Source: an uncultured bacterium
GTDB lineage: Bacteria > Gemmatimonadota > Gemmatimonadetes > Gemmatimonadales > Gemmatimonadaceae
Assembly (NCBI GenBank): GCA_963978095.1
Contig: CAXBQP010000014.1
Span: 1-54,166, forward strand
Direction of reading: 5' to 3'
Length of the DNA: 54,166 nucleotides
Positions 35,464 to 50,309 of the stretch are shown here, piece by piece. The translations under genes were made by a program, and so were the position numbers. Position 1 is the first letter of the stretch. Each line of letters starts with the position of its first letter. Below the pieces are notes generated by a model. That model saw nothing but the letters and a program-made list of their open reading frames with translations, had not been told where the DNA came from and ran no database searches.

Positions 35464-36507
35464 CTATGCCAAGAGTTCCGTGACGAGCGTCGACGTATGT
35501 GTCACGAGTGAAATCACCTTTTCGTACGGCATGCGCGTCGGCCCGATCACACCGATCACCCCGGACAGCCCGCCCGCACGATACTCCGCCGTCACCAATG
35601 TCATCCCGCCGGGCAGCGCGTTGCCGTGCTCCGCGCCGATCGTGATCTGCACGCCGGCCGCCGCCTTCCGGGCGCGCAAAAGCGTCGCCAACTCGGTCCG
35701 CGTCTCCGTCAACTCGATCAGTCGACGCATCTGCTCCCCGCTGGCGAACTCGGGCTTGTCCGCCAATACCGACGCCTGCCCCAAGACCACGGCGTCCCCG
35801 CGCTCCGCGGCAGCCACGTCGAACAGTTGCTCCTGCTCCTGAACGAAGATATTCAGCAACTCCGTCGCATCGCCGCGAACCCCGGAATCGCGCACCCGTT
35901 CACCCAAGGAGAGCCGGATTTCGGCCAGCGTCACTCCTCCGAGTCGTTCATTGAGCACGCGCTGCACCTCGGCGAGCGCGTTGTCGGCAATCTCCCCCTT
36001 CACTTCAATGAACACGGTGCGAACCGCCCCGCCCCGGAGGGTCAGCACCAACATCAACTTCTCAAAACTGAGACGGACGATATCCAACCGCTCGAGAACG
36101 GTCTGGTCCATACGGGGGCCGAGCGCGATCCCCAGCTCCTGGGTCAGCACTCCGAGGCTCTGTGCGGCGCGCCGGAGAATCGACTCGATAGCTGACCCCG
36201 CGTGCGACAACTCATTGGCCAGCCGCTGCCGCTCCACCGGCTCGAGTGGAGGAATCCGCATCAACTCATCGACGTACACCCGATACGCCTTTTCGGTGGG
36301 AATACGTCCGGCGGAGGTATGGGGATGAAACAAGTACCCCTTCTCCTCCAGATCGCTCATCGTGTTACGGATCGTCGCCGGCGACACCCCGAATCCAAAG
36401 CGCCGGGCCAGCGTCCGAGACGCCGCCGGCTCAGCGGTCTCGACATACGATCGAATCACCGCCTGCAAGACCGACCGCTCGCGCTCCGAAAGCTCCGCCG
36501 ATGTCAT
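35464..36507 (-). CDS. hrcA: Heat-inducible transcription repressor HrcA
   Basis: SPATIRNTMSDLE..HPHTSAGRIPT..YVD; IGVIGPTRMPY. Confidence 0.97.
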   Translation of the reverse strand: MTSAELSERERSVLQAVIRSYVETAEPAASRTLARRFGFGVSPATIRNTMSDLEEKGYLFHPHTSAGRIPTEKAYRVYVDELMRIPPLEPVERQRLANELSHAGSAIESILRRAAQSLGVLTQELGIALGPRMDQTVLERLDIVRLSFEKLMLVLTLRGGAVRTVFIEVKGEIADNALAEVQRVLNERLGGVTLAEIRLSLGERVRDSGVRGDATELLNIFVQEQEQLFDVAAAERGDAVVLGQASVLADKPEFASGEQMRRLIELTETRTELATLLRARKAAAGVQITIGAEHGNALPGGMTLVTAEYRAGGLSGVIGVIGPTRMPYEKVISLVTHTSTLVTELLA

Positions 36508-36514
36508 AAGTTGA

Positions 36515-36544
36515 AGTATACTAACGACTTCGGCGTGCGGTCAA
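36515..36544 (-). promoter_or_regulatory. Promoter of a probably leaderless hrcA transcript
   Basis: TTGACC-18 bp-TATACT-7 nt-ATG, no Shine-Dalgarno. Confidence 0.6.
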
Positions 36545-37645
36545 GACGGCGGCGAGGGCGTCGAGACGCAGCCATCCCGCCGCCGTCAAGGAAAGGCGCA
36601 CCCCGTCAAGTACTGCCCAACCCGCCTCGACCCACTGCTCCACCGTGGCGAGCTCATCCGCGTCCAGTTGCAGCCCATCGACTGTTCGCAGTCCCAGGTA
36701 CACCTCTTCGGCGATCCGGTTCTCGCGGGTCAGCGCCTCGAACCCCGCCTCCGCACCTCTCCCCGCCATGACCGACGTTCGCCAGCGCTCGTATTCCGGG
36801 ATATTCCAGCGCCGATTCGTGCCATCAAACGAGTGCGCCGACGGTCCAAGCCCGCGATACGGAACCCGCCTCCAGTAGGCGGAGTTGTGCCGACTGCGCA
36901 TGCCGGGTTTGGCGAAATTCGACACCTCGTAGTGGTCGAAACCGCCGGCCACCATCCGATGGTGAGCCTCGAGGAACTCATCCGCGTATCGGTCTTCCGA
37001 GGCCTCCATGGTTTCCCCGCGGGCGGCCCACCGACCCAGCGGCGTGTGCGGCTCGACCGTCAGCCCGTACAACGACACATGATCCGGCCCCAGCGCCAAC
37101 GCTCGCTCGAGGTCGGCAGTCCAGGCGCGATTCAAGGCGTCCGGCAGCGCAAAGATGAGATCAAGCGAGATATCGCCGATCCCTGCGTTTCGGAGGTTAC
37201 TCATCGCGGCTTGAACGGTGGACATATCATGCGACCGGTGCATCCAACGTAACACGCCGTCGTCAAAACTTTGCACACCGAGGGACACCCGACGAACCCC
37301 CGCAGCCGCCCAGGCAATCGCCGCGTCAGCGGACACATCTTCCGGGTTCGCCTCGAGAGTGATCTCCGTGCCCCCCATCAACGCCGGCTGGTGCACCTCC
37401 GCGATTGTAGCGATTAGGTCTGCGACCCCAACCGCACCCAACCGACTCGGGGTACCGCCCCCCAAGTAGAGGGTGTCCACGGGTTCGGAACCAGCGGTAT
37501 GCGATGACGTTACGAGTTCTGCCTTTATGGCGTCTACGTACGGAGCCACGGGAATCGTGCGGCGGACCGCGATCGAAAAATCGCAGTAGCTGCAGCGCCG
37601 AGCACAGAAGGGGACGTGGACGTAGATGTGCCGCAGACCAGGCAC
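36521..37645 (-). CDS. hemW: Radical SAM heme chaperone HemW (HemN-like)
   Basis: YVHVPFCARRCSYCDF, GGGTPS, EANP, YEVSNF, HNSAYW; start uncertain (GTG 37645). Confidence 0.92.
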   Translation of the reverse strand: MPGLRHIYVHVPFCARRCSYCDFSIAVRRTIPVAPYVDAIKAELVTSSHTAGSEPVDTLYLGGGTPSRLGAVGVADLIATIAEVHQPALMGGTEITLEANPEDVSADAAIAWAAAGVRRVSLGVQSFDDGVLRWMHRSHDMSTVQAAMSNLRNAGIGDISLDLIFALPDALNRAWTADLERALALGPDHVSLYGLTVEPHTPLGRWAARGETMEASEDRYADEFLEAHHRMVAGGFDHYEVSNFAKPGMRSRHNSAYWRRVPYRGLGPSAHSFDGTNRRWNIPEYERWRTSVMAGRGAEAGFEALTRENRIAEEVYLGLRTVDGLQLDADELATVEQWVEAGWAVLDGVRLSLTAAGWLRLDALAAVLTARRSR

Positions 37646-37704
37646 TCCGTGGGAAAAGTTCAGTATCCTGAGACCACCGGCTCCAAAACCTGCCCAGAAC
37701 CAGC

Positions 37705-37896
37705 AGTTGAGAATCACTTAAAGTGGTTTGTCAAATCTATTTATTGCAACACTTGCGGCATTTCAAATACAAAATACTTTAACGTCAATCTGATTTTTTT
37801 CCACATAGAACACGGTGGGTCTTCCGGCGGCCCATCGCTCGCTGGAATGCGGTTTTCCACGCCCCTTTATCTGGCCGGCAGCTCTTATGTGGATAA
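37705..37896. other. Candidate replication origin (AT-rich element + DnaA boxes)
   Basis: Strikingly AT-rich tract ~37705-37810; TTTTCCACA 37797-37805, TTTTCCACG 37853-37861, TGTGGATAA 37888-37896. Confidence 0.5.
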
Positions 37897-38784
37897 AGCT
37901 AAAGCCCGTCGCAAAGAACCGTCGCTACCGCACTCGATCAAGCCGCGGATCTCAAGCCTCGAACACACGCTTAAAACCTGCCGAATCGACATTCCGAGTC
38001 GATCGGCAAGTGACTCAATACTCGACGACCCTCCCTCCAGCGACTCCCACACCCTGCCCTCGTCATATCCCAGTTCGGGCGCGGCCACCGGTCCATCCGC
38101 TACCACGCCAAACAGGCCAAGCGCATCCGACAGATCGGTGATGACCTGCGCCCCGTCACGGAGCAGCAGATTGCTCCCAGCGCTGCGCGCAGAATCAATC
38201 GGCCCGGGAACCGCCGCAACGACTCGGCCCAACTCGAGGGCCTGGGTCGCGGTATTTACCGCCCCGGACTTGAACGGCGCCTCGACAACGATGGTTACTT
38301 CTGCCAGCGCGGCGATTATCCGATTCCGTCGAGGGAAGCATCCGGGCGCCGCGCGACTCCCGGGCGCCCGCTCCGACAACACCAGCCCCGAGGCCGCAAT
38401 CTCCCGGTGCAACGCGCGGTGTCCGACGGGGTATGGCACGTCGACTCCGGTCCCCAGCACCGCAATCGTCTCACCGTTCGCCGCCAGCGCCCCACGGTGG
38501 GCCGCTGAATCGATCCCCCTAGCCAACCCACTCACCACCGCGATTCCGGCCCTCGCAAACGCCCTGGCGAGCTCGTCGGCCACACGCATGCCGTACGGGG
38601 ACGCATCCCGGGTCCCCACGATGGCGACAGATCGCCGCGGTGCACGCTGCAGCACCATCCCCCGGCCCAACAGGTAGAGTCCGCTGACCGGCTCCCGAAG
38701 TCCGTCAAAGGCGGCGGTTGGCCACCACGGGTCCCCGGGCCGAAGCCGCTCCGCGGGCCCCTCGGCACCATTTTCCCCAAGCAT
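37885..38784 (-). CDS. dprA: DNA-processing protein DprA
   Basis: VAIVGTR, VVSGLARGID..AHRGAL, FPRRNRIIAAL, VVEA..SGA..TA, GSNLLLRDGA, C-terminal winged helix. Confidence 0.95.
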   Translation of the reverse strand: MLGENGAEGPAERLRPGDPWWPTAAFDGLREPVSGLYLLGRGMVLQRAPRRSVAIVGTRDASPYGMRVADELARAFARAGIAVVSGLARGIDSAAHRGALAANGETIAVLGTGVDVPYPVGHRALHREIAASGLVLSERAPGSRAAPGCFPRRNRIIAALAEVTIVVEAPFKSGAVNTATQALELGRVVAAVPGPIDSARSAGSNLLLRDGAQVITDLSDALGLFGVVADGPVAAPELGYDEGRVWESLEGGSSSIESLADRLGMSIRQVLSVCSRLEIRGLIECGSDGSLRRALALST

Positions 38785-43632: not shown

Positions 43633-43676
43633 AAAGCAGAGCGGCCTCGGGCGATTGCCCGAGGCCGCTCTGCTTT
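43633..43676. terminator. Bidirectional intrinsic terminator
   Basis: Perfect 20-bp inverted repeat AAAGCAGAGCGGCCTCGGGC-GATT-GCCCGAGGCCGCTCTGCTTT between convergent genes. Confidence 0.85.
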
Positions 43677-43690
43677 ACTGGATGGACTGA

Positions 43691-44236
43691 TTACTTGGAG
43701 ATCAACGGCGCCGAGAACGCCACCAAGGCATGGTGCATGGCCAAGAGAACCTGCGGCGGGTTGGTCAAAAAAGCCGGGCTCGACGCAGCGATCATCGCAT
43801 TGAACTTCTCGACGGCACTCTTGACGGCAACCGGCGACGGGTTCGTTCCGAGCCCAGCCATCGCGGCCATGACCGCCGCAGTCTCCGCCGTCGGCGCTCC
43901 AGCAGCGTTCAGCTGCCCCTGAACCGTGGCGACCGCGCCCGCCGCGCCGCTGAGCAGCGCCGAGACCGCTGCACCAGCTGCAGCCGGGATCGCGGCGTTG
44001 GTGATGCTGGAGCGGGCGCTTCCCGACGATAGCGAAGTGGAAGCCGTGGCGCCGATCACGAGCATCGTCGGCGAGGCGGAGTTCACGCCGCCGCCACTGT
44101 TGCTCGGCGAGAACATCCCGCCGAGCGTGGAGTTGGTGATGCCCGGGCTGCTGTGGTCGCTGTTGTTGATGTTCTGAGCGGCCAGCGGCGCAGCGGCCAC
44201 CAGCGCGAGACCGAACGTGAGGAAAGTCTTCTTCAT
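43691..44236 (-). CDS. Secreted Ala/Ser/Gly-rich protein of unknown function
   Basis: Sec signal MKKTFLTFGLALVAAAPLAA-Q; GGAG RBS; strongly biased codons; helical C-terminus AVEKFNAMIAASSPAFLTNPP. Confidence 0.85.
   Translation of the reverse strand: MKKTFLTFGLALVAAAPLAAQNINNSDHSSPGITNSTLGGMFSPSNSGGGVNSASPTMLVIGATASTSLSSGSARSSITNAAIPAAAGAAVSALLSGAAGAVATVQGQLNAAGAPTAETAAVMAAMAGLGTNPSPVAVKSAVEKFNAMIAASSPAFLTNPPQVLLAMHHALVAFSAPLISK
44046..44073. repeat. 28-nt direct repeat, copy 1 (copy 2 at 44880-44907)
   Basis: GTGGCGCCGATCACGAGCATCGTCGGCG vs GTGGCGCTGATCACGAGCATCGACGGCG (2 mismatches). Confidence 0.85.
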
Positions 44237-44302
44237 GGTGAGTTATGCTCCGAAACTAGGGACGAGTCGAGAAATCGCGAGTGAATGATCGATCGTGTTG
44301 GA

Positions 44303-45796
44303 TCAACGCTGCGGCGCCTTGAGGCTCTCGCCACCCGCGGTGATCTCGAACTCGGCGCGGCGGTTCTTCGCCCACGCATCTTCCGTGTGGCCCGCATCAA
44401 CCGGACGCTCCTCACCGAAACCAACCGTCTCGATGCGATCAGCCGTGATGCCGCGGGACACGAGGTACCGCTTGGCCGACGCCGCACGACGCTGCGACAG
44501 CGCAAGGTTGTATTCATCGGAACCGCGCTCGTCGGTGTGGCCGGCGATGCGGATCTTGAGCGACGGATTGGCCTGGAGGACCGGGATCTTGGCATCGAGC
44601 GACGCCTTCTGGTCTTCGCGGATGTCGTCCTTGTCGAAGTCGTAGAAGACGATCTTGGCGACCGCGGCGCGCACGGCGTCGAGGGCGGCGTTGCTCTTGC
44701 TGCGGTCGGTTTCAGACGCAGCGGCCAAGGCCTTGTTCTTCTCGGCGGCGGCGGCGTCAGCCGCACGCTTGCGCTCTTCTTCCGCGCGGGCGCGCGCCGC
44801 TTCCGCCACTTGGCGGCGGCGTTCGTCTTCCGCACGGGCGGCGGCCATCGCGACACGCTCGGCTTCCGCCTGAGCGGCAGTGGCGCTGATCACGAGCATC
44901 GACGGCGCAGCGGCCGGGGCCGGAGCCGACGGATTGACCTTGAACGCGAAGCCAACGCCAAGCGTGAAGCGAGGACCCGTCTTCTTGACGCTCGGGCCAG
45001 TGGTGAGGTTCGAGTTGGACGAGCCCGTGAGGTCGGAAATCGCCGGCGAGAGCACGAGCGGAAGGTTCTTGAACGGCACGAAGGAGACGCCGAGGTTCAA
45101 ATCCTGGCCGGACCAGTCGAGAATCACCGAACTGGCTTCGTTCACCCGCAACGCGGCCGAGGTGAAGATGCCGACGCCGTGCTTGCCAGTGTTGAGGTCA
45201 CCCGCCATCTGGAAGGCCTCGGTGCCGATACCGCCGGACCACGTCAGGCCCTTGAACTGGCTGAGCGCGGTGCCCTCGAGGCTGAATGCCTTCGTGACGA
45301 CGCCGTAGATACTGTTGCGGTCGTCCGCGTTGCTGTTCAGCTGCACGCCCTGGACGCCGAGCGCGACGCCCCAGTTGTCGGCGAGGATCTTGTGCGCTTT
45401 GAAGCCGAATCCCACGCGATTGCCGACGCCCGAACGGACCGTCGAGAGCGCGTTGATGGCGACTTCGAGGCCCGCGATGTCGGAGGCGTTGCCGAGGCCG
45501 AAGCCCATGGACACGCTGCCATCGGCGTCGCCGTTGGCGCTGTAGCGCACCGGCGCTTGGAGGCCCGCCCCGATGAAGGCATCATTCCAGTTCGCGCCGA
45601 AGGCGATCGGTGAACCGGAGCTGGTGCCCGGCGCGCCGCGCGGGAAGCGGCCGGTCTCATTCGCCAGACCGACTTCCGGAACCGGAAGACGGAACTTCGC
45701 ACGCAGATCCTCGATAGACTGCTGTGCGCCCGCCGTACGCGAAACCGTCGTCGCGACGATTACGGAAGCAGCGAGGAGCTTGCGGAACGAACCCAT
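44303..45796 (-). CDS. Outer membrane protein: putative beta-barrel + Ala-rich linker + Pal/OmpA-like peptidoglycan-binding domain
   Basis: Signal peptide without lipobox Cys; amphipathic strands ending FTLGVGFAF; C-terminal FYDFDK..GHTDERGSDEYNLALSQRRA..GEERP..NRRAEF. Confidence 0.88.
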   Translation of the reverse strand: MGSFRKLLAASVIVATTVSRTAGAQQSIEDLRAKFRLPVPEVGLANETGRFPRGAPGTSSGSPIAFGANWNDAFIGAGLQAPVRYSANGDADGSVSMGFGLGNASDIAGLEVAINALSTVRSGVGNRVGFGFKAHKILADNWGVALGVQGVQLNSNADDRNSIYGVVTKAFSLEGTALSQFKGLTWSGGIGTEAFQMAGDLNTGKHGVGIFTSAALRVNEASSVILDWSGQDLNLGVSFVPFKNLPLVLSPAISDLTGSSNSNLTTGPSVKKTGPRFTLGVGFAFKVNPSAPAPAAAPSMLVISATAAQAEAERVAMAAARAEDERRRQVAEAARARAEEERKRAADAAAAEKNKALAAASETDRSKSNAALDAVRAAVAKIVFYDFDKDDIREDQKASLDAKIPVLQANPSLKIRIAGHTDERGSDEYNLALSQRRAASAKRYLVSRGITADRIETVGFGEERPVDAGHTEDAWAKNRRAEFEITAGGESLKAPQR

Positions 45797-45831: not shown

Positions 45832-45934
45832 AGTTGCAACCGATATACTCAGATGCGGGCGCGCCTGTGACACGACGTCACGTTCGCCCCGCCCCGTTTC
45901 TGATGCCTCGCCCTTAATGTCGGAGTTGCAACCG
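45832..45934. promoter_or_regulatory. Repeated palindromic operator candidates upstream of the OMP gene
   Basis: AGTTGCAACCG at 45832-45842 and 45924-45934 (core palindrome GTTGCAAC). Confidence 0.5.
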
Positions 45935-46044: not shown

Positions 46045-46117
46045 GGGCCCTTAGCTCAGCGGTCAGAGCAGCGGACTCATAATCCGACGTGCGGTGGTTC
46101 GAATCCACCAGGGCCCA
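46045..46117 (+). tRNA. tRNA with CAT anticodon, most likely tRNA-Ile2
   Basis: GGGCCCT acceptor stem, D arm, CT-CAT-AA loop, GGTGG-TTCGAAT-CCACC T arm, discriminator A; resembles ileX-type rather than initiator Met; CCA not encoded. Confidence 0.9.
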
Positions 46118-47327
46118 TTGATCGGTCGCTGCCGCGCGGCGGCGCGAGAATCGCCGCGCGGATTTCGTCGCGAAAACGGGGGCGTGCGAATCGCAGGGCA
46201 TTGGTGCGGCACGCCATCCAGGCGGTGCCCGACGACCGCCACGGCCTCCCCTCGAACCGCCGGATCGCCTCCGCGAGCGCCTCGGCGCTCTGCTCGAAGT
46301 AGAACTCACCCGTGGGGTCCGCCTGATCGGCCCCGCGGATCGTTTCGACGGCGCCCCCTCGTGCGTATGCGATCACCGGCACGCCGCACGCTTGGGCTTC
46401 GACCGGAGCAATCCCAAAATCCTCTTCGGCCGCGAAGACGAACCCGCGAGCGCCCTGCAGCCATCGCCGCAACTCTGCACGCGAGGTGTGCCCGACCAAC
46501 GTGACGTTCGGGCCGGCGGCCGCTCGAACCTTGGCCTCGTCGGGACCCGCGCCGACGATCACCAATCGCTTGTCGGGGAGGCGGCGAAACGCCGCCGCGA
46601 TCATATCGACCCGCTTGTACGGCACGAACCGACTTGCCGTGACGTAGTACTCCTCAGCCGACGACATCCCCTCCACCCGAACCGGACCAGTGTCCATATC
46701 CGCCGCGGCCGGTACGAAGAACTCGGTATCGACCGGCGGATAGACCACCGCTGCCGACCGGCCATACGCGCGCGCGATCCGGTCGGCGATGTACGACGAC
46801 AGGGTGAGAAATCGATCGACGCGCGCGCTCGTCGTTCGATCCCATCGACGTAGCGCGTTGAGCATGAGACGCGCCGGAGGGCCCAGCAGCGGTCCGTCGA
46901 GCGACGCTTCGCGCAGGTATTGCTCCCGCAAGTCCCAGGCGTAGCGCATCGGCGACAAGCAATAACAGACGTGCCGCTGGTCCCGGTGCGGGCGGATCCC
47001 CTTCGCGACCGCGTGTGAGTTCGAAATCACCAGATCGTACCCGCTCAGGTCGTGCCCAGAAACCGCCCACGGCATTACGGGGAGGTAGGCGCGATACTGG
47101 CGCGATATCCCCGGCACACCCTGCAGCCACGTCGTGCGCGTCGGAGGTAGCGCCAGTGCCGCGCGATCCTGATCGGCCATATGGTCGATGGTCGTGAAGA
47201 CGGTGGCGTCCGGAAACGCCAGCAACAGGTCGCGCAGGACCCACTCGGCACCCGCGAGGGTGACGAGCCAGTCGTGCACGATCGCCACGCGAAGCGGCGC
47301 GGCGGAGTCCGCAGCAACAGAGCTCAT
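46077..47327 (-). CDS. Glycosyltransferase family 4 (WbaZ-like)
   Basis: VAIVHDWLVTLAGAE, SPMRYAWD, SRFVPYKRVD, EEDFGIAPVEAQACG. Confidence 0.93.
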   Translation of the reverse strand: MSSVAADSAAPLRVAIVHDWLVTLAGAEWVLRDLLLAFPDATVFTTIDHMADQDRAALALPPTRTTWLQGVPGISRQYRAYLPVMPWAVSGHDLSGYDLVISNSHAVAKGIRPHRDQRHVCYCLSPMRYAWDLREQYLREASLDGPLLGPPARLMLNALRRWDRTTSARVDRFLTLSSYIADRIARAYGRSAAVVYPPVDTEFFVPAAADMDTGPVRVEGMSSAEEYYVTASRFVPYKRVDMIAAAFRRLPDKRLVIVGAGPDEAKVRAAAGPNVTLVGHTSRAELRRWLQGARGFVFAAEEDFGIAPVEAQACGVPVIAYARGGAVETIRGADQADPTGEFYFEQSAEALAEAIRRFEGRPWRSSGTAWMACRTNALRFARPRFRDEIRAAILAPPRGSDRSMGPGGFEPPHVGL

Positions 47328-47443
47328 AACGCCGTGCAATCTACAGCGGAACCTCGGCCGGCGGATACGGAAATGAACAGTGTCAAGACTTGTACGCTCC
47401 CCGCTTCCACCCAACGCGACCGGTGGTTATGATTCACGAGTCA

Positions 47444-47517
47444 GGACGCGTAGCTCAGCTGGTTAGAGCGCTGCTTTCACACAGCAGAGGTCCGGGGTTC
47501 GAGTCCCTGCGCGTCCA
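47444..47517 (+). tRNA. tRNA-Val(CAC)
   Basis: GGACGCG/CGCGTCC acceptor, CTGCT-TTCACAC-AGCAG anticodon arm, GGTTCGAGTCC T loop; CCA not encoded. Confidence 0.95.
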
Positions 47518-47711
47518 TGCAGTATCTTGCGATGTCGTTGATTAGGTAATGGTCAGAGGTTGAACCTGAAGCGGCGCGCGGCCATGACCGAGCGTCGCTT
47601 CGTGGTGTTGTGTCGTCGCTGCGGCGTGTGTAGGTCGGTGCGCTGCTCATGCATTGGGAACTGCATCCGGCCCCGACTGAAGTACTTGTCCCACGTTTTG
47701 AATGGAGCAGA

Positions 47712-50309
47712 ATGATGTCGAAGTCGCGACGTATTCTTGCACTTGCGCTATCACTGACTGCGTTCGCGATCTCGCGAGCAGCCGAGGCGCAGCAAACGAC
47801 CAAGCCGACGCCGCAAGAGGCGCAGGCTCTGATGGCCAATCGACCGGACCTTCTGGCGCAACTTCGCCAGCGGATCATGACCAGCGGCATGACGCCCGAG
47901 CAGGTTCGGGCTCGCCTCCGGGCGGAAGGCTACCCGGAGAACCTGTTGGACGCGTACCTCCCCGGCAGCACCGGTGGGACGGATGCAACACCTACCAACG
48001 ACGTCTTTGATGCCATCAAGGCGCTCGGTATCAGTGACTCCTCCGACGTCGAACTACTGCGGGGCATGTCCGTCCCCCAGCCCGCGAGAACTCGCGCCGG
48101 CGCACTGAATGTCGCGCCTGACCCGTACACCACCAATCCCTATCTGACCCAAGCTCAGCGCGACCGTGAGGACTCGCTGAGTCGACTGCAGTCCGCGGCT
48201 GGCCGCGCACGCATTGACATGCCGATTTTCGGCGCCAACCTCTTCCGATCGACGAATAGCGAGTTTCAGGCGAACCTCGATGGCCCCGTCGATGCGAGTT
48301 ACCGACTCGGGCCCGGCGACCGGTTGGTACTCATTCTCACCGGCGAAGTTGAGGCGGCGCATACACTCGACGTCACGCGCGAGGGGTTCGTCCTCATTCC
48401 GCAGGTCGGGCAGATTGCCGTGGCGAACCTGACCATCGCGCAACTCGAGGAAGTGCTGTACGTTCGCCTCGGGCGCGTGTACTCCGGGGTGCGCAAAGGG
48501 GCGGGCGCGACGACCCATTTTCAGCTTTCGGTCGCGAAGCTTCGAAGTAACCAGATCTTTGTCGTCGGGGACGTCGTGCGTCCCGGCAGCTATCGTGTAT
48601 CGAGCGCCGGCACCCTGATGACCGCTCTTTATGCTGCCGGGGGGCCGAGCGACAACGGTACGTTCCGGTCGGTCGTCGTGCGCCGCGCGGGCAAGGAAGT
48701 GGGGCGCATGGACGTGTACGATTATCTCCTGCGTGGAGATGCTTCTCGAGACGTGCGACTCGAGTCCGGGGACATCGTGTTTGTGGCCACCCACGGGCCA
48801 CGGGTTCGAATTGCCGGTGAGATCACCCGCGCGGCGATCTACGAGCTCAAGCCCGGTGAGACGTTGTCGGATCTCGTGACAGCCGCAGGTGGTCTCACGG
48901 CGTCGGCCTCTCGGCAAAGGATCCAAGTCGAGCGCGTTGTTCCCGCTGGACAGCGCGGAGCGAAGCAGGAGGCTCGAACGTTGATCGAGGTGACCAGCGA
49001 TGCCGCACTGGGGGCTTCCGCAACGTCCTTGCCGTTGGAGAACGGTGACTACGTTCGCGTCTTCGGCGTGGCGGAGCGAATTCGCAATCGCTTGGTCGTC
49101 AAAGGCAACGTTTGGCACGAGGGTGCGCAAGCTTTTGCCCCTGGCCTGACTCTCTCGGAGGTCTTGCGTCGCGCCGGCGGTGCCAAGCCTGATACTTACT
49201 TGGGCGAAGTGCTGGTGTCGCGACTTCGGGACGACTCGACCCGAGTGCAGCTACGCGCCATGCTTCGCGACACCACGGGTGCGGTGCTCGGTCCCGATTT
49301 CCCTTTGACGGACGATGACGAAATCATCGTCTTCTCTTTGACGGACTTCCGGCCAAGGTTGTACGTCGCCGTCGCCGGCGCCGTACGAAAGCCCGGCCAA
49401 ATTCCCTACCGCGAGGGGATGACGCTTCGAGACGCGCTGCTTTTGGCAGGCGGTCCGACCGAGCGTGCGTATCTCGGAGAAGTTGAAATTGCCCAACAGC
49501 CAAGCAATCGCCGCCTCGGGCAGCTTGCCGTGACAACCCGCGTTCCTCTGGACACGACTCGGCTACCTGGCGCCGGGGCAGCAGTAGCGGGAGGAAACGC
49601 GCAGGGGACAGGCGCCCAGGATGTCGTGTTGCGTCCTTTCGACAACGTGTTGGTCATGCAGCAAACCGAGTGGCGCCCTCTGCAATCGGTATGGATCACT
49701 GGTGAGGTTCGGCTGCCCGGGAAGTACGTGATTCGCGACAAGAATGAACGCGTTCGTGACTTGATCCTGCGAGCGGGTGGATTGCTGCCAGACGCGAGCA
49801 TCGAGGCCGCCTACTACGCCCGCAGTCGTGCGGCCACCACATACCAAAACGCTCAAGACAAGGCCTCGTCCGCTCTGACGCGATTGGGGGTTGACCTTCG
49901 GGGAGTTCTGCAGCGCCCGGAGGACGGAAACAATCTGTTGCTGGAAGGAGGGGACTCTTTGGACATCCCCGTCTCTCGCGGGACCGTCGAGGTTCGCGGC
50001 GCCGTCAACCTCCCAACCATTACCGTTGTCACACCTGGGGCTTCCCTCAGCTCGTACCTTCGCTCGGCAGGCGGAATATCGATTCTTGGCGACTTGAGCA
50101 GGGCGTACGTGATTCAGCCGAATGGCAAGATCGAAAGTCGGCGGAGCTTTCTGTTCTTCACAGTAGATCCGACCCCCCGCCCGGGTTCCACCGTTGTGGT
50201 TCCACCGCGCGACACGACGAACTCTTCCGCCGCAACACTGGCGACCGTCTCGACCATCACGCAAATCATTGCGGGCTTGCTCACTGCTTATGCTCTAATC
50301 AAGCGTTGA
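47712..50309 (+). CDS. Polysaccharide export protein with multiple SLBB domains (Wza/KpsD-like OPX)
   Basis: Signal peptide; YRLGPGDRL (Poly_export); repeated V.GEV..PG.Y / AGG SLBB units; C-terminal amphipathic helix. Confidence 0.92.
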   Translation: MMSKSRRILALALSLTAFAISRAAEAQQTTKPTPQEAQALMANRPDLLAQLRQRIMTSGMTPEQVRARLRAEGYPENLLDAYLPGSTGGTDATPTNDVFDAIKALGISDSSDVELLRGMSVPQPARTRAGALNVAPDPYTTNPYLTQAQRDREDSLSRLQSAAGRARIDMPIFGANLFRSTNSEFQANLDGPVDASYRLGPGDRLVLILTGEVEAAHTLDVTREGFVLIPQVGQIAVANLTIAQLEEVLYVRLGRVYSGVRKGAGATTHFQLSVAKLRSNQIFVVGDVVRPGSYRVSSAGTLMTALYAAGGPSDNGTFRSVVVRRAGKEVGRMDVYDYLLRGDASRDVRLESGDIVFVATHGPRVRIAGEITRAAIYELKPGETLSDLVTAAGGLTASASRQRIQVERVVPAGQRGAKQEARTLIEVTSDAALGASATSLPLENGDYVRVFGVAERIRNRLVVKGNVWHEGAQAFAPGLTLSEVLRRAGGAKPDTYLGEVLVSRLRDDSTRVQLRAMLRDTTGAVLGPDFPLTDDDEIIVFSLTDFRPRLYVAVAGAVRKPGQIPYREGMTLRDALLLAGGPTERAYLGEVEIAQQPSNRRLGQLAVTTRVPLDTTRLPGAGAAVAGGNAQGTGAQDVVLRPFDNVLVMQQTEWRPLQSVWITGEVRLPGKYVIRDKNERVRDLILRAGGLLPDASIEAAYYARSRAATTYQNAQDKASSALTRLGVDLRGVLQRPEDGNNLLLEGGDSLDIPVSRGTVEVRGAVNLPTITVVTPGASLSSYLRSAGGISILGDLSRAYVIQPNGKIESRRSFLFFTVDPTPRPGSTVVVPPRDTTNSSAATLATVSTITQIIAGLLTAYALIKR

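Follow-up and report, generated by a model that had tools for sequence, protein, structure and literature searches.

A conserved pair of envelope genes in Gemmatimonadota, encoding a predicted 12-stranded barrel with a Pal-type domain and a secreted partner, as a possible outer membrane–cell wall tether

Contig CAXBQP010000014.1 (assembly GCA_963978095.1), from an uncultured member of the Gemmatimonadaceae, was analyzed over a stretch of 54,166 nucleotides that we refer to as the window. Its minus strand carries two adjacent open reading frames (ORFs), here called A and B, which an initial annotation made from the sequence had described as a two-gene envelope module: a beta-barrel fused to a Pal-like domain, followed by a secreted partner. 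We found both ORFs at this location and in this arrangement (Table 1). The module is flanked upstream by a GT4 gene and a gene for an 886-residue OPX protein, and downstream by a PfkB kinase gene. As had also been noted, the locus is not a tol-pal operon: the window contains no tol-pal genes, the neighbors of A being GT4, tRNA and PfkB genes, and elsewhere in the same genome, contig C32 has a Pal-like ORF with one for a CpoB/YbgF-like TPR protein after it.

Table 1. Features of the A–B module, with positions in the window and residue numbers in the respective protein (pLDDT, predicted local distance difference test)
Feature	Positions	Strand	Residues or length	Description	Basis
Gene A	44303..45796	-	497 residues	barrel-helix-OmpA outer-membrane protein	ORF, Pfam and NCBIfam scans, AlphaFold2 model
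Signal peptide of A	45725..45796	-	1-24	...VSRTAGA/QQ	translation; N-terminal pattern common to homologs
Pre-barrel segment of A	45584..45724	-	25-71	short helix, LPxP, then GRFPRGAPGTSSGSPIAFGANW	near-invariant alignment columns
Predicted 12-stranded beta-barrel of A	44939..45583	-	72-286	last strand RFTLGVGFAF	AlphaFold2 single-domain model
Hinge of A	44879..44938	-	287-306	Pro/Ala	sequence; pLDDT <50 at residues 292-306
Long helix of A	44657..44878	-	307-380	Ala/Glu/Arg	DSSP helix, pLDDT 72-90
Peptidoglycan-binding domain of A	44336..44647	-	384-487	Pal-type, OmpA-like	PF00691, TIGR02802, Foldseek
A–B spacer	44237..44302	-	66 bp		sequence; RNA-library contigs of three runs, out of four from a single study, bridge it
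Gene B	43691..44236	-	181 residues	partner protein, downstream of A	ORF, family profile
N-terminal motif of mature B	44102..44176	-	21-45	conserved; core N-x-S-D-x-S/T-G ... GG-x-F	alignment, regular expression
C-terminal domain of B	43694..43996	-	81-181	Ala-rich; motif F/Y-N-A...FL..PP	alignment, hhalign
Hairpin 3' of B	43633..43676	-	20 bp, perfect	probably terminates both B and the convergent PfkB gene	free energy

The domain order of A is that proposed in the initial annotation. The protein begins with a cleavable signal peptide, and because residues 1–30 contain no cysteine, there is no lipobox. The Pro/Ala hinge, the long Ala/Glu/Arg helix and the Pal-like domain that had been described could all be located: the helix comprises 74 residues, equivalent to roughly 11 nm, and separates the barrel from the C-terminal domain. 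PF00691 matches residues 384–479 with 80.7 bits (cutoff 27.2), covering profile positions 1–98 of 98, and is the sole Pfam match in A, with no match to PF00395 (SLH). In NCBIfam, the Pal model TIGR02802 aligns with residues 383–483 only and, at 125.3 bits, stays marginally below its cutoff of 125.35. The full AlphaFold2 model, based on a 36-row alignment, has a mean pLDDT of 74 and contains 12 strands, a disordered hinge, the helix and an OmpA fold. When this whole model was submitted to Foldseek, it matched the C-terminal domains of Pal and OmpA, including the Pal structures 2hqs and 1oap at TMt values of 0.85–0.86. The earlier suggestion that A is tethered to peptidoglycan is supported by this domain.

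AlphaFold2 predicts that the N-terminal part of A is a real 12-stranded barrel. Residues 25–294 modeled alone (41-row alignment) gave 12 strands with a pLDDT of 79.9 and a predicted template modeling score of 0.78, and the strands end in FTLGVGFAF, as had been read from the sequence. A structure search against representatives, one of the checks suggested at the outset, returned 12-strand barrels as the top matches, with Z scores of 13–16 over 164–196 aligned residues at 6–15% identity, and Foldseek with the barrel model agreed. The matches include VhGalP (PDB 8xua, Z 16.1, the best), a COG4313 channel (4rl8, Z 15.7), KdgM (4pr7, Z 15.7), FapF (5o65, Z 15.5), NanC (2wjr, Z 15.1) and the autotransporter beta-domain of NalP (1uyo, Z 14.5; Z 13–14.5 for autotransporter beta-domains in general). 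For the KdgM/NanC/VhGalP porins (Z 15.1–16.1), the root-mean-square deviation is 2.6–3.0 over 164–184 aligned residues.

The sequence of the barrel has no counterpart in the family databases. At E ≤ 5, no Pfam barrel family matched any of the 41 alignment members, residues 25–294 of A included; the Pfam matches on these rows were OmpA on the 7 fused ones and otherwise weak chance hits. NCBIfam held nothing for the barrel family, and a PDB sequence search with the barrel yielded only weak matches, with one unrelated protein at E 0.05. Outer-membrane barrels usually end in an aromatic residue, and 33 of 34 stand-alone homologs (~278 residues) have F, W or Y as the final residue. When residues are assigned by strand parity rather than from coordinates, 59 face the lumen of the A barrel; most are small, 5 are K/R and 4 are D/E, and nine glycines are conserved. 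The pre-barrel segment is predicted with low pLDDT but can be aligned with a cyanobacterial SLH-barrel protein described below, and it may act as a plug.

Gene B encodes the secreted, Ala-rich protein that had been reported 66 bp past A. After a signal peptide ending in PLAA/Q, the mature protein consists of a conserved N-terminal peptide of ~20 residues, a Gly/Ser-rich low-complexity linker and an Ala-rich domain of ~100 residues. Pfam and NCBIfam scans gave no family match for B, and a PDB sequence search found only weak ones (designed helical repeat proteins, AP-2 beta). Single-sequence searches with B detected 4 proteins in one case and matches in 5 of 201 genomes in another; a later profile search showed this sparseness to be a limit of sensitivity. 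The ORFs downstream of barrel homologs revealed a fast-diverging family of B-like proteins, whose more distant members share 25–43% identity, compared with 45–60% for the barrels. A profile built from 24 members matched 614 cluster representatives at E ≤ 1e-3, 438 of them at E ≤ 1e-10.

In the partner alignment A20 and Q21 are invariant, D27 is conserved in at least 90% of members, and the motif core reads S/T-D-x-S/T-G; the C-terminal domain, which from its sequence is probably helical, ends in F/Y-N-A...FL..PP..L..I-H. No repeats, amyloid-type or other, were seen in B when the family alignment was inspected. For the best 150 partner representatives, a regular expression for the N-terminal motif matched 131, a hydrophobic signal-peptide core was present in 148 and a lipobox-like motif in 5. 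The N-terminal motif is repeated within cyanobacterial partners. Both sequence motifs quoted in the initial annotation turned out to be conserved parts of these families, one of the barrel and the other of the partner.

Three further ideas about B were discarded. DUF1400, a lead from the ESM Atlas with a score of only 0.83, gave no Pfam hit at E ≤ 1 for B or at E ≤ 0.01 for the cyanobacterial partner. A covalent, Lpp-like link through a terminal lysine, which is the last residue of B, was dropped because only 16 of the 150 representatives end in Lys, Arg being commoner (49 of 150), and an N-glycosylation sequon in the N-terminal motif was dropped because its Asn is not conserved in the alignment. 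The family also has members of unusual layout. The partners of L026 (2346–3674), P0195 and P0272 bear a different C-terminal extension of one or two ~100-residue domains (...TGDT...G.PF...) that have no Pfam match, and the P0261 protein runs into a CHAT (caspase-like) domain (29.5 bits), on a short contig where the protein is perhaps cut. Two tandem partners occur in L019 and L021/L064, and two tandem barrels in L033. L062 contains the complete module twice, with a Bac_transf gene in between, and in L060 a further OmpA protein, 662 residues long, is also partner-like.

The partner is obligately adjacent to the barrel. Among 401 Gemmatimonadota genomes, the barrel was found in 24, at 33 places, and the partner profile matched in 21, at 30 places. 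All 21 are barrel-positive, the profile search found no partner in the 377 barrel-negative genomes, and all 30 partner places lie on the barrel's strand within ~2.2 kb of it. The reverse dependence does not hold: 7 of the 33 barrel places have no partner. In a separate tally with hidden Markov models, covering 30 loci in 24 genomes, the partner is adjacent in 24 loci, downstream in 23 and upstream in one (L034), and the partner-less loci are L016, L033, L035, L041 and two paralogs with distinctive tails, L036 and L037. A pattern scan of genome contigs gave 9 loci, all in Gemmatimonadota. Because the genomes are related to one another, these counts are not independent events; they nevertheless agree with the proposal that A and B form a conserved two-gene module, for which a survey of gene neighborhoods had been recommended.

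One of the tailed paralogs belongs to the source genome itself, which the taxon names of homologs also place in Gemmatimonadota and which has three relevant loci: gene A, the Pal-like ORF on C32 and a paralog on contig C1 (75159–76667; L002, L036). This paralog is 63% identical to A, has a Pro/Ala/Lys-rich tail and is partner-less. It belongs to a subfamily (L002/L036, L037, L044–L046) in which barrel, helix and OmpA domain are followed by a C-terminal Pro/Ala/Lys-rich tail of 50–100 residues. Members of this subfamily always lack a partner and adjoin an adenosylhomocysteinase gene; an M19 dipeptidase gene lies downstream in L045 and L046.

The wall-anchor domain swaps between barrel and partner. 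It is on the barrel in the window, L042 and L043, as well as in L025 (in the tally, PF00691 matched the barrels of L012, L013, L025 and L043), and on the partner, next to a stand-alone barrel, in L049 (91.1 bits) and also in L027 (37.4 bits), L028 (43.1 bits) and P0186 (96.8 bits). In L047, L048 and L050, a plain barrel is paired with a plain partner. L048, L049 and L050 have the same synteny as the window: rml or GT4 genes, barrel, partner, and PfkB or EamA. Because an OmpA-like domain acts on peptidoglycan, the C terminus of the OmpA-fused partners should be periplasmic. In the two genomes with an OmpA-fused partner (L059/L060; G140 C3, G108 C22), the module is set amid genes for MacB-type ABC permeases, an HlyD-like adaptor and a TolC-like protein, with no polysaccharide genes nearby.

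The pairing of barrel and partner is common to two distant phyla, Gemmatimonadota and Cyanobacteria. The partner profile also matches three-domain proteins named from two cyanobacteria. In a metagenome locus, L051, the partner is 88% identical to one of these, and a barrel ORF lies 24 bp upstream of it. The C-terminal half of this ORF and the A barrel share 42% identity (E 6e-51), and hhalign relates the cyanobacterial partner to the B family with a probability of 95.5%. L052 repeats this arrangement, both loci being from one cyanobacterial lineage. Because barrel and partner are adjacent in L051 and L052, the suggestion in the initial annotation that cyanobacteria have adjacent relatives lacking the Pal domain was right. 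With the cyanobacterial barrel as query, 1,932 proteins matched at E ≤ 1e-5, and of the best 120, 63 contain SLH (PF00395). In one of these relatives, P0352, three SLH domains precede a barrel whose identity to A is 39% for residues 2–265, pre-barrel segment included. A relative from Fusobacteriota, represented by one match from a plasmid search, is followed by a gene for an 88-residue signal-peptide protein, which lacks the partner's C-terminal domain, and then by Wzz, CpsD and CpsB.

Among the closest known systems are the OmpA/OprF tethers: like them, A combines a non-lipid signal peptide with a barrel that a linker joins to PF00691 at the C terminus, its codon bias suggests high expression, and it contains their canonical TD..G....N..LS..RRA stretch, which we take to be the peptidoglycan-binding motif. 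OmpA itself has an 8-stranded barrel and a short hinge, whereas A has 12 strands, no OmpA_membrane match, the long helix and a dedicated downstream partner. The Pal protein (TIGR02802) of the Tol-Pal system is closest to the C-terminal domain of A in both sequence and fold, but Pal has a lipobox and belongs to a tol-pal cluster, whereas A has neither and scores just under the model's cutoff. The combination of SLH and an outer-membrane barrel is the architecture that defines OmpM tethers, and SLH-porin combinations are plastic in cyanobacteria, according to Witwinowski et al. (10.1101/2021.05.31.446380). The cyanobacterial members of the A barrel family share this architecture of N-terminal SLH plus barrel; A has no SLH domain, but instead an OmpA domain at the opposite end.

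In fold class and size, the A barrel is like those of KdgM/NanC/VhGalP, COG4313, FapF and the autotransporter beta-domains, but it differs from each group in other respects. Compared with the KdgM/NanC porins, it has no family match and, by strand parity, lacks the basic lumen track characteristic of that family (5 K/R, 4 D/E, many Gly). It is similar in fold to FapF, but there are no fap genes or consistent third gene in the scanned flanks, where polysaccharide or unrelated genes lie instead, and unlike an autotransporter, whose passenger is in the same chain, it precedes a periplasmic helix and an OmpA domain. A last comparison is with the composite OPX/barrel translocons, which it recalls in that several relatives have an outer-membrane barrel gene beside OPX and PCP genes. 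Such translocons combine 18-stranded barrels with OPX proteins lacking the C-terminal helix (PMC9601211); examples are EpsY/EpsX and WzaB/WzpB, with AlgE/PgaA-like barrels (PMC9601211, PMC9603273, PMC12819527). A hydrophobic C-terminal segment is present in all four of the short OPX proteins adjacent to modules, as well as in the window's 886-residue OPX protein. Given this and its 12 strands, A does not qualify as part of a translocon of this kind.

The biased codon use reported for both genes is borne out by the effective number of codons: among 28 ORFs of the window, picked from a list filtered by G+C content at third codon positions (GC3) with shadow ORFs dropped, A ranks lowest at 31.7, and B is fourth from the bottom at 36.4. 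The GC3 of the two genes, 0.83–0.84, is ordinary for the genome. In a single metatranscriptome study, four runs have contigs that match A and the 5' part of B with an identity of at least 95%. Codon bias and contigs together suggest that freshwater Gemmatimonadota have A as a major protein of their outer membrane. In all four runs, the RNA contigs end 37–52 nt upstream of the A start (X4 and X8 at 45848, X7 at 45845, X5 at 45833), and these ends, at 45833–45848, may mark the 5' end of a transcript.

Based on these observations, our preferred reading, which we hold tentatively and at slightly less than even chances, is that A and B form a two-subunit tether between the outer membrane and the cell wall, with the partner facing the periplasm. 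A would be an abundant outer-membrane protein working like OmpA or OmpM, its barrel fixed non-covalently to peptidoglycan at the periplasmic end by the helix reaching to the Pal-type OmpA domain. B would remain in the periplasm, where its N-terminal peptide might dock on the periplasmic face of the barrel or inside the glycine-lined lumen, with its C-terminal end directed toward the wall. The pair would thus act as one functional unit whose wall anchor is carried by the barrel, by the partner, by neither or, in cyanobacteria, by an N-terminal SLH segment of the barrel. A bolder version, which we regard as somewhat unlikely, is that the partner is a periplasmic strut with an Lpp-like role but no lipid, held by its N-terminal peptide in the glycine-lined barrel, in an old module that was wired to the wall repeatedly: through SLH anchors in Cyanobacteria and OmpA-like ones in Gemmatimonadota, on either subunit. 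Such a module may also couple the wall to surface polysaccharide.

Several observations weigh against the two-subunit tether. Most modules have a wall-binding domain on neither protein, so tethering may be accessory to another core function. The barrel residues that are invariant across the family are also kept in the partner-less paralogs, which means that the lumen is not conserved for B alone. The conserved N-terminal peptide of B is compatible with a secretion signal too, and an OmpA-fused partner could have its N terminus threaded to the surface. Contigs bridge the A–B spacer in three of the four RNA runs, but contigs are no proof of a single transcript and the libraries may contain DNA. 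Finally, the module usually lies in gene clusters for envelope polysaccharide synthesis. These neighbors hint at a role outside the tether model, and they underlie its main rival, in which the module serves a capsule or exopolysaccharide pathway at the outer membrane, as an exit channel or a Wzi-like surface anchor for the polymer, with B an accessory and tethering secondary. Polysaccharide or sugar-nucleotide genes are found at all four of L047–L050, beside the window module (GT4, OPX and PfkB) and, within ~6 kb, at 10 of 14 wider loci; these counts were made without a random-locus control and on mutually related genomes. In individual loci the module adjoins a short OPX gene (L055, L056, L067, L068; L055 has a Wzc-like gene as well) or Bac_transf (L062, L066), and the Wzz, CpsD and CpsB genes behind the Fusobacteriota relative and the oligosaccharide porins among the top fold matches point the same way. 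YjbH also occurs in 32% of the members of an ESM Atlas neighbor cluster (score 0.92), but hhalign did not confirm this lead: the barrel and partner profiles gave 0.2% and 0.6% with E. coli YjbH and YjbE, respectively, in what is a weak test with single-sequence templates, and a YjbH/GfcD identity was rejected. With 12 strands rather than the 18 described for composite translocons (PMC9601211), hydrophobic ends on the OPX proteins, both the short neighboring ones and that of the window, no basic track in the lumen, and no such neighbors at 4 of the 14 wider loci or at the cyanobacterial locus, we consider a primary role in polysaccharide export or anchoring unlikely.

The next alternative is close to what the initial annotation had favored, that the barrel exports B as a surface cargo for an S-layer or filament. 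B would then be an unfolded substrate of a FapF-like or two-partner system; its N-terminal peptide would direct it to the barrel, and it would end up on the cell surface or be released there. The fold match to the FapF secretion channel (Z 15.5), a glycine-lined lumen through which a polypeptide chain could pass, the conserved N-terminal peptide with its low-complexity Gly/Ser/Asn stretch, and the fact that B never occurs without the barrel are all compatible with this idea; in curli, CsgA is exported through CsgG by means of an N-terminal signal of 22 residues. Free surface cargo is disfavored mainly because the partner's C terminus should be periplasmic where it is OmpA-fused (L027, L028, L049, P0186). 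In addition, B has no amyloid-type or other repeats, its C-terminal part is a conserved Ala-rich domain unlike a filament sequence, the scanned flanks hold no other Fap or two-partner secretion genes, and barrels without a partner exist. The cargo proposal thus found no support and we judge it distinctly unlikely, although export of part of B is possible. We think it more improbable still that B acts in the periplasm on the assembly or quality control of the barrel family without being a lasting subunit. The one-way dependence of partner on barrel and the fast divergence of B next to a barrel that stays at 45–60% identity would suit such a factor, but a wall-binding domain on a transient chaperone is hard to explain, and the partners that are in tandem or have three domains (L019, L021, L051) point to a structural role in fixed proportions.

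Both families are large yet have no Pfam or NCBIfam model, and word searches of open-access text found no paper on either. The presence of the same barrel with SLH in one phylum and with an OmpA domain in another bears on the change of tether between two great clades, as outlined by Witwinowski et al. (10.1101/2021.05.31.446380): if the bolder version of our reading is true, one barrel family would span the reported divide between Terrabacteria-type and Gracilicutes-type tethers. A strictly barrel-dependent partner and a movable wall anchor are not seen with OmpA, Pal or OmpM, and the pair gives the idea of a two-subunit tether a case that can be tested.

The hairpin behind B corresponds to the strong terminator that had been noted there. 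It begins 15 nt past the B stop codon and has a free energy of -44.7 kcal/mol (z -7.95), with none of 200 shuffled sequences as stable. Because it has no U-tract, a simple terminator scan did not call it; it probably serves as a two-way terminator for B and the convergent PfkB gene. On the other flank of the module are two tRNA genes: tRNA-Met (46045–46117, plus strand), which the GT4 ORF (46077–47414, minus strand) overlaps by 41 nt at its 3' end, on the opposite strand, and tRNA-Val (47444–47517). The OPX gene beyond them (47649–50309, plus strand), with Poly_export and several SLBB domains, shows atypical codon use, with a GC3 of 0.70 and an effective codon number of 50.6. Elsewhere in the window, the G+C content falls to 0.61 at 36001–38000, compared with ~0.67 in the surroundings.

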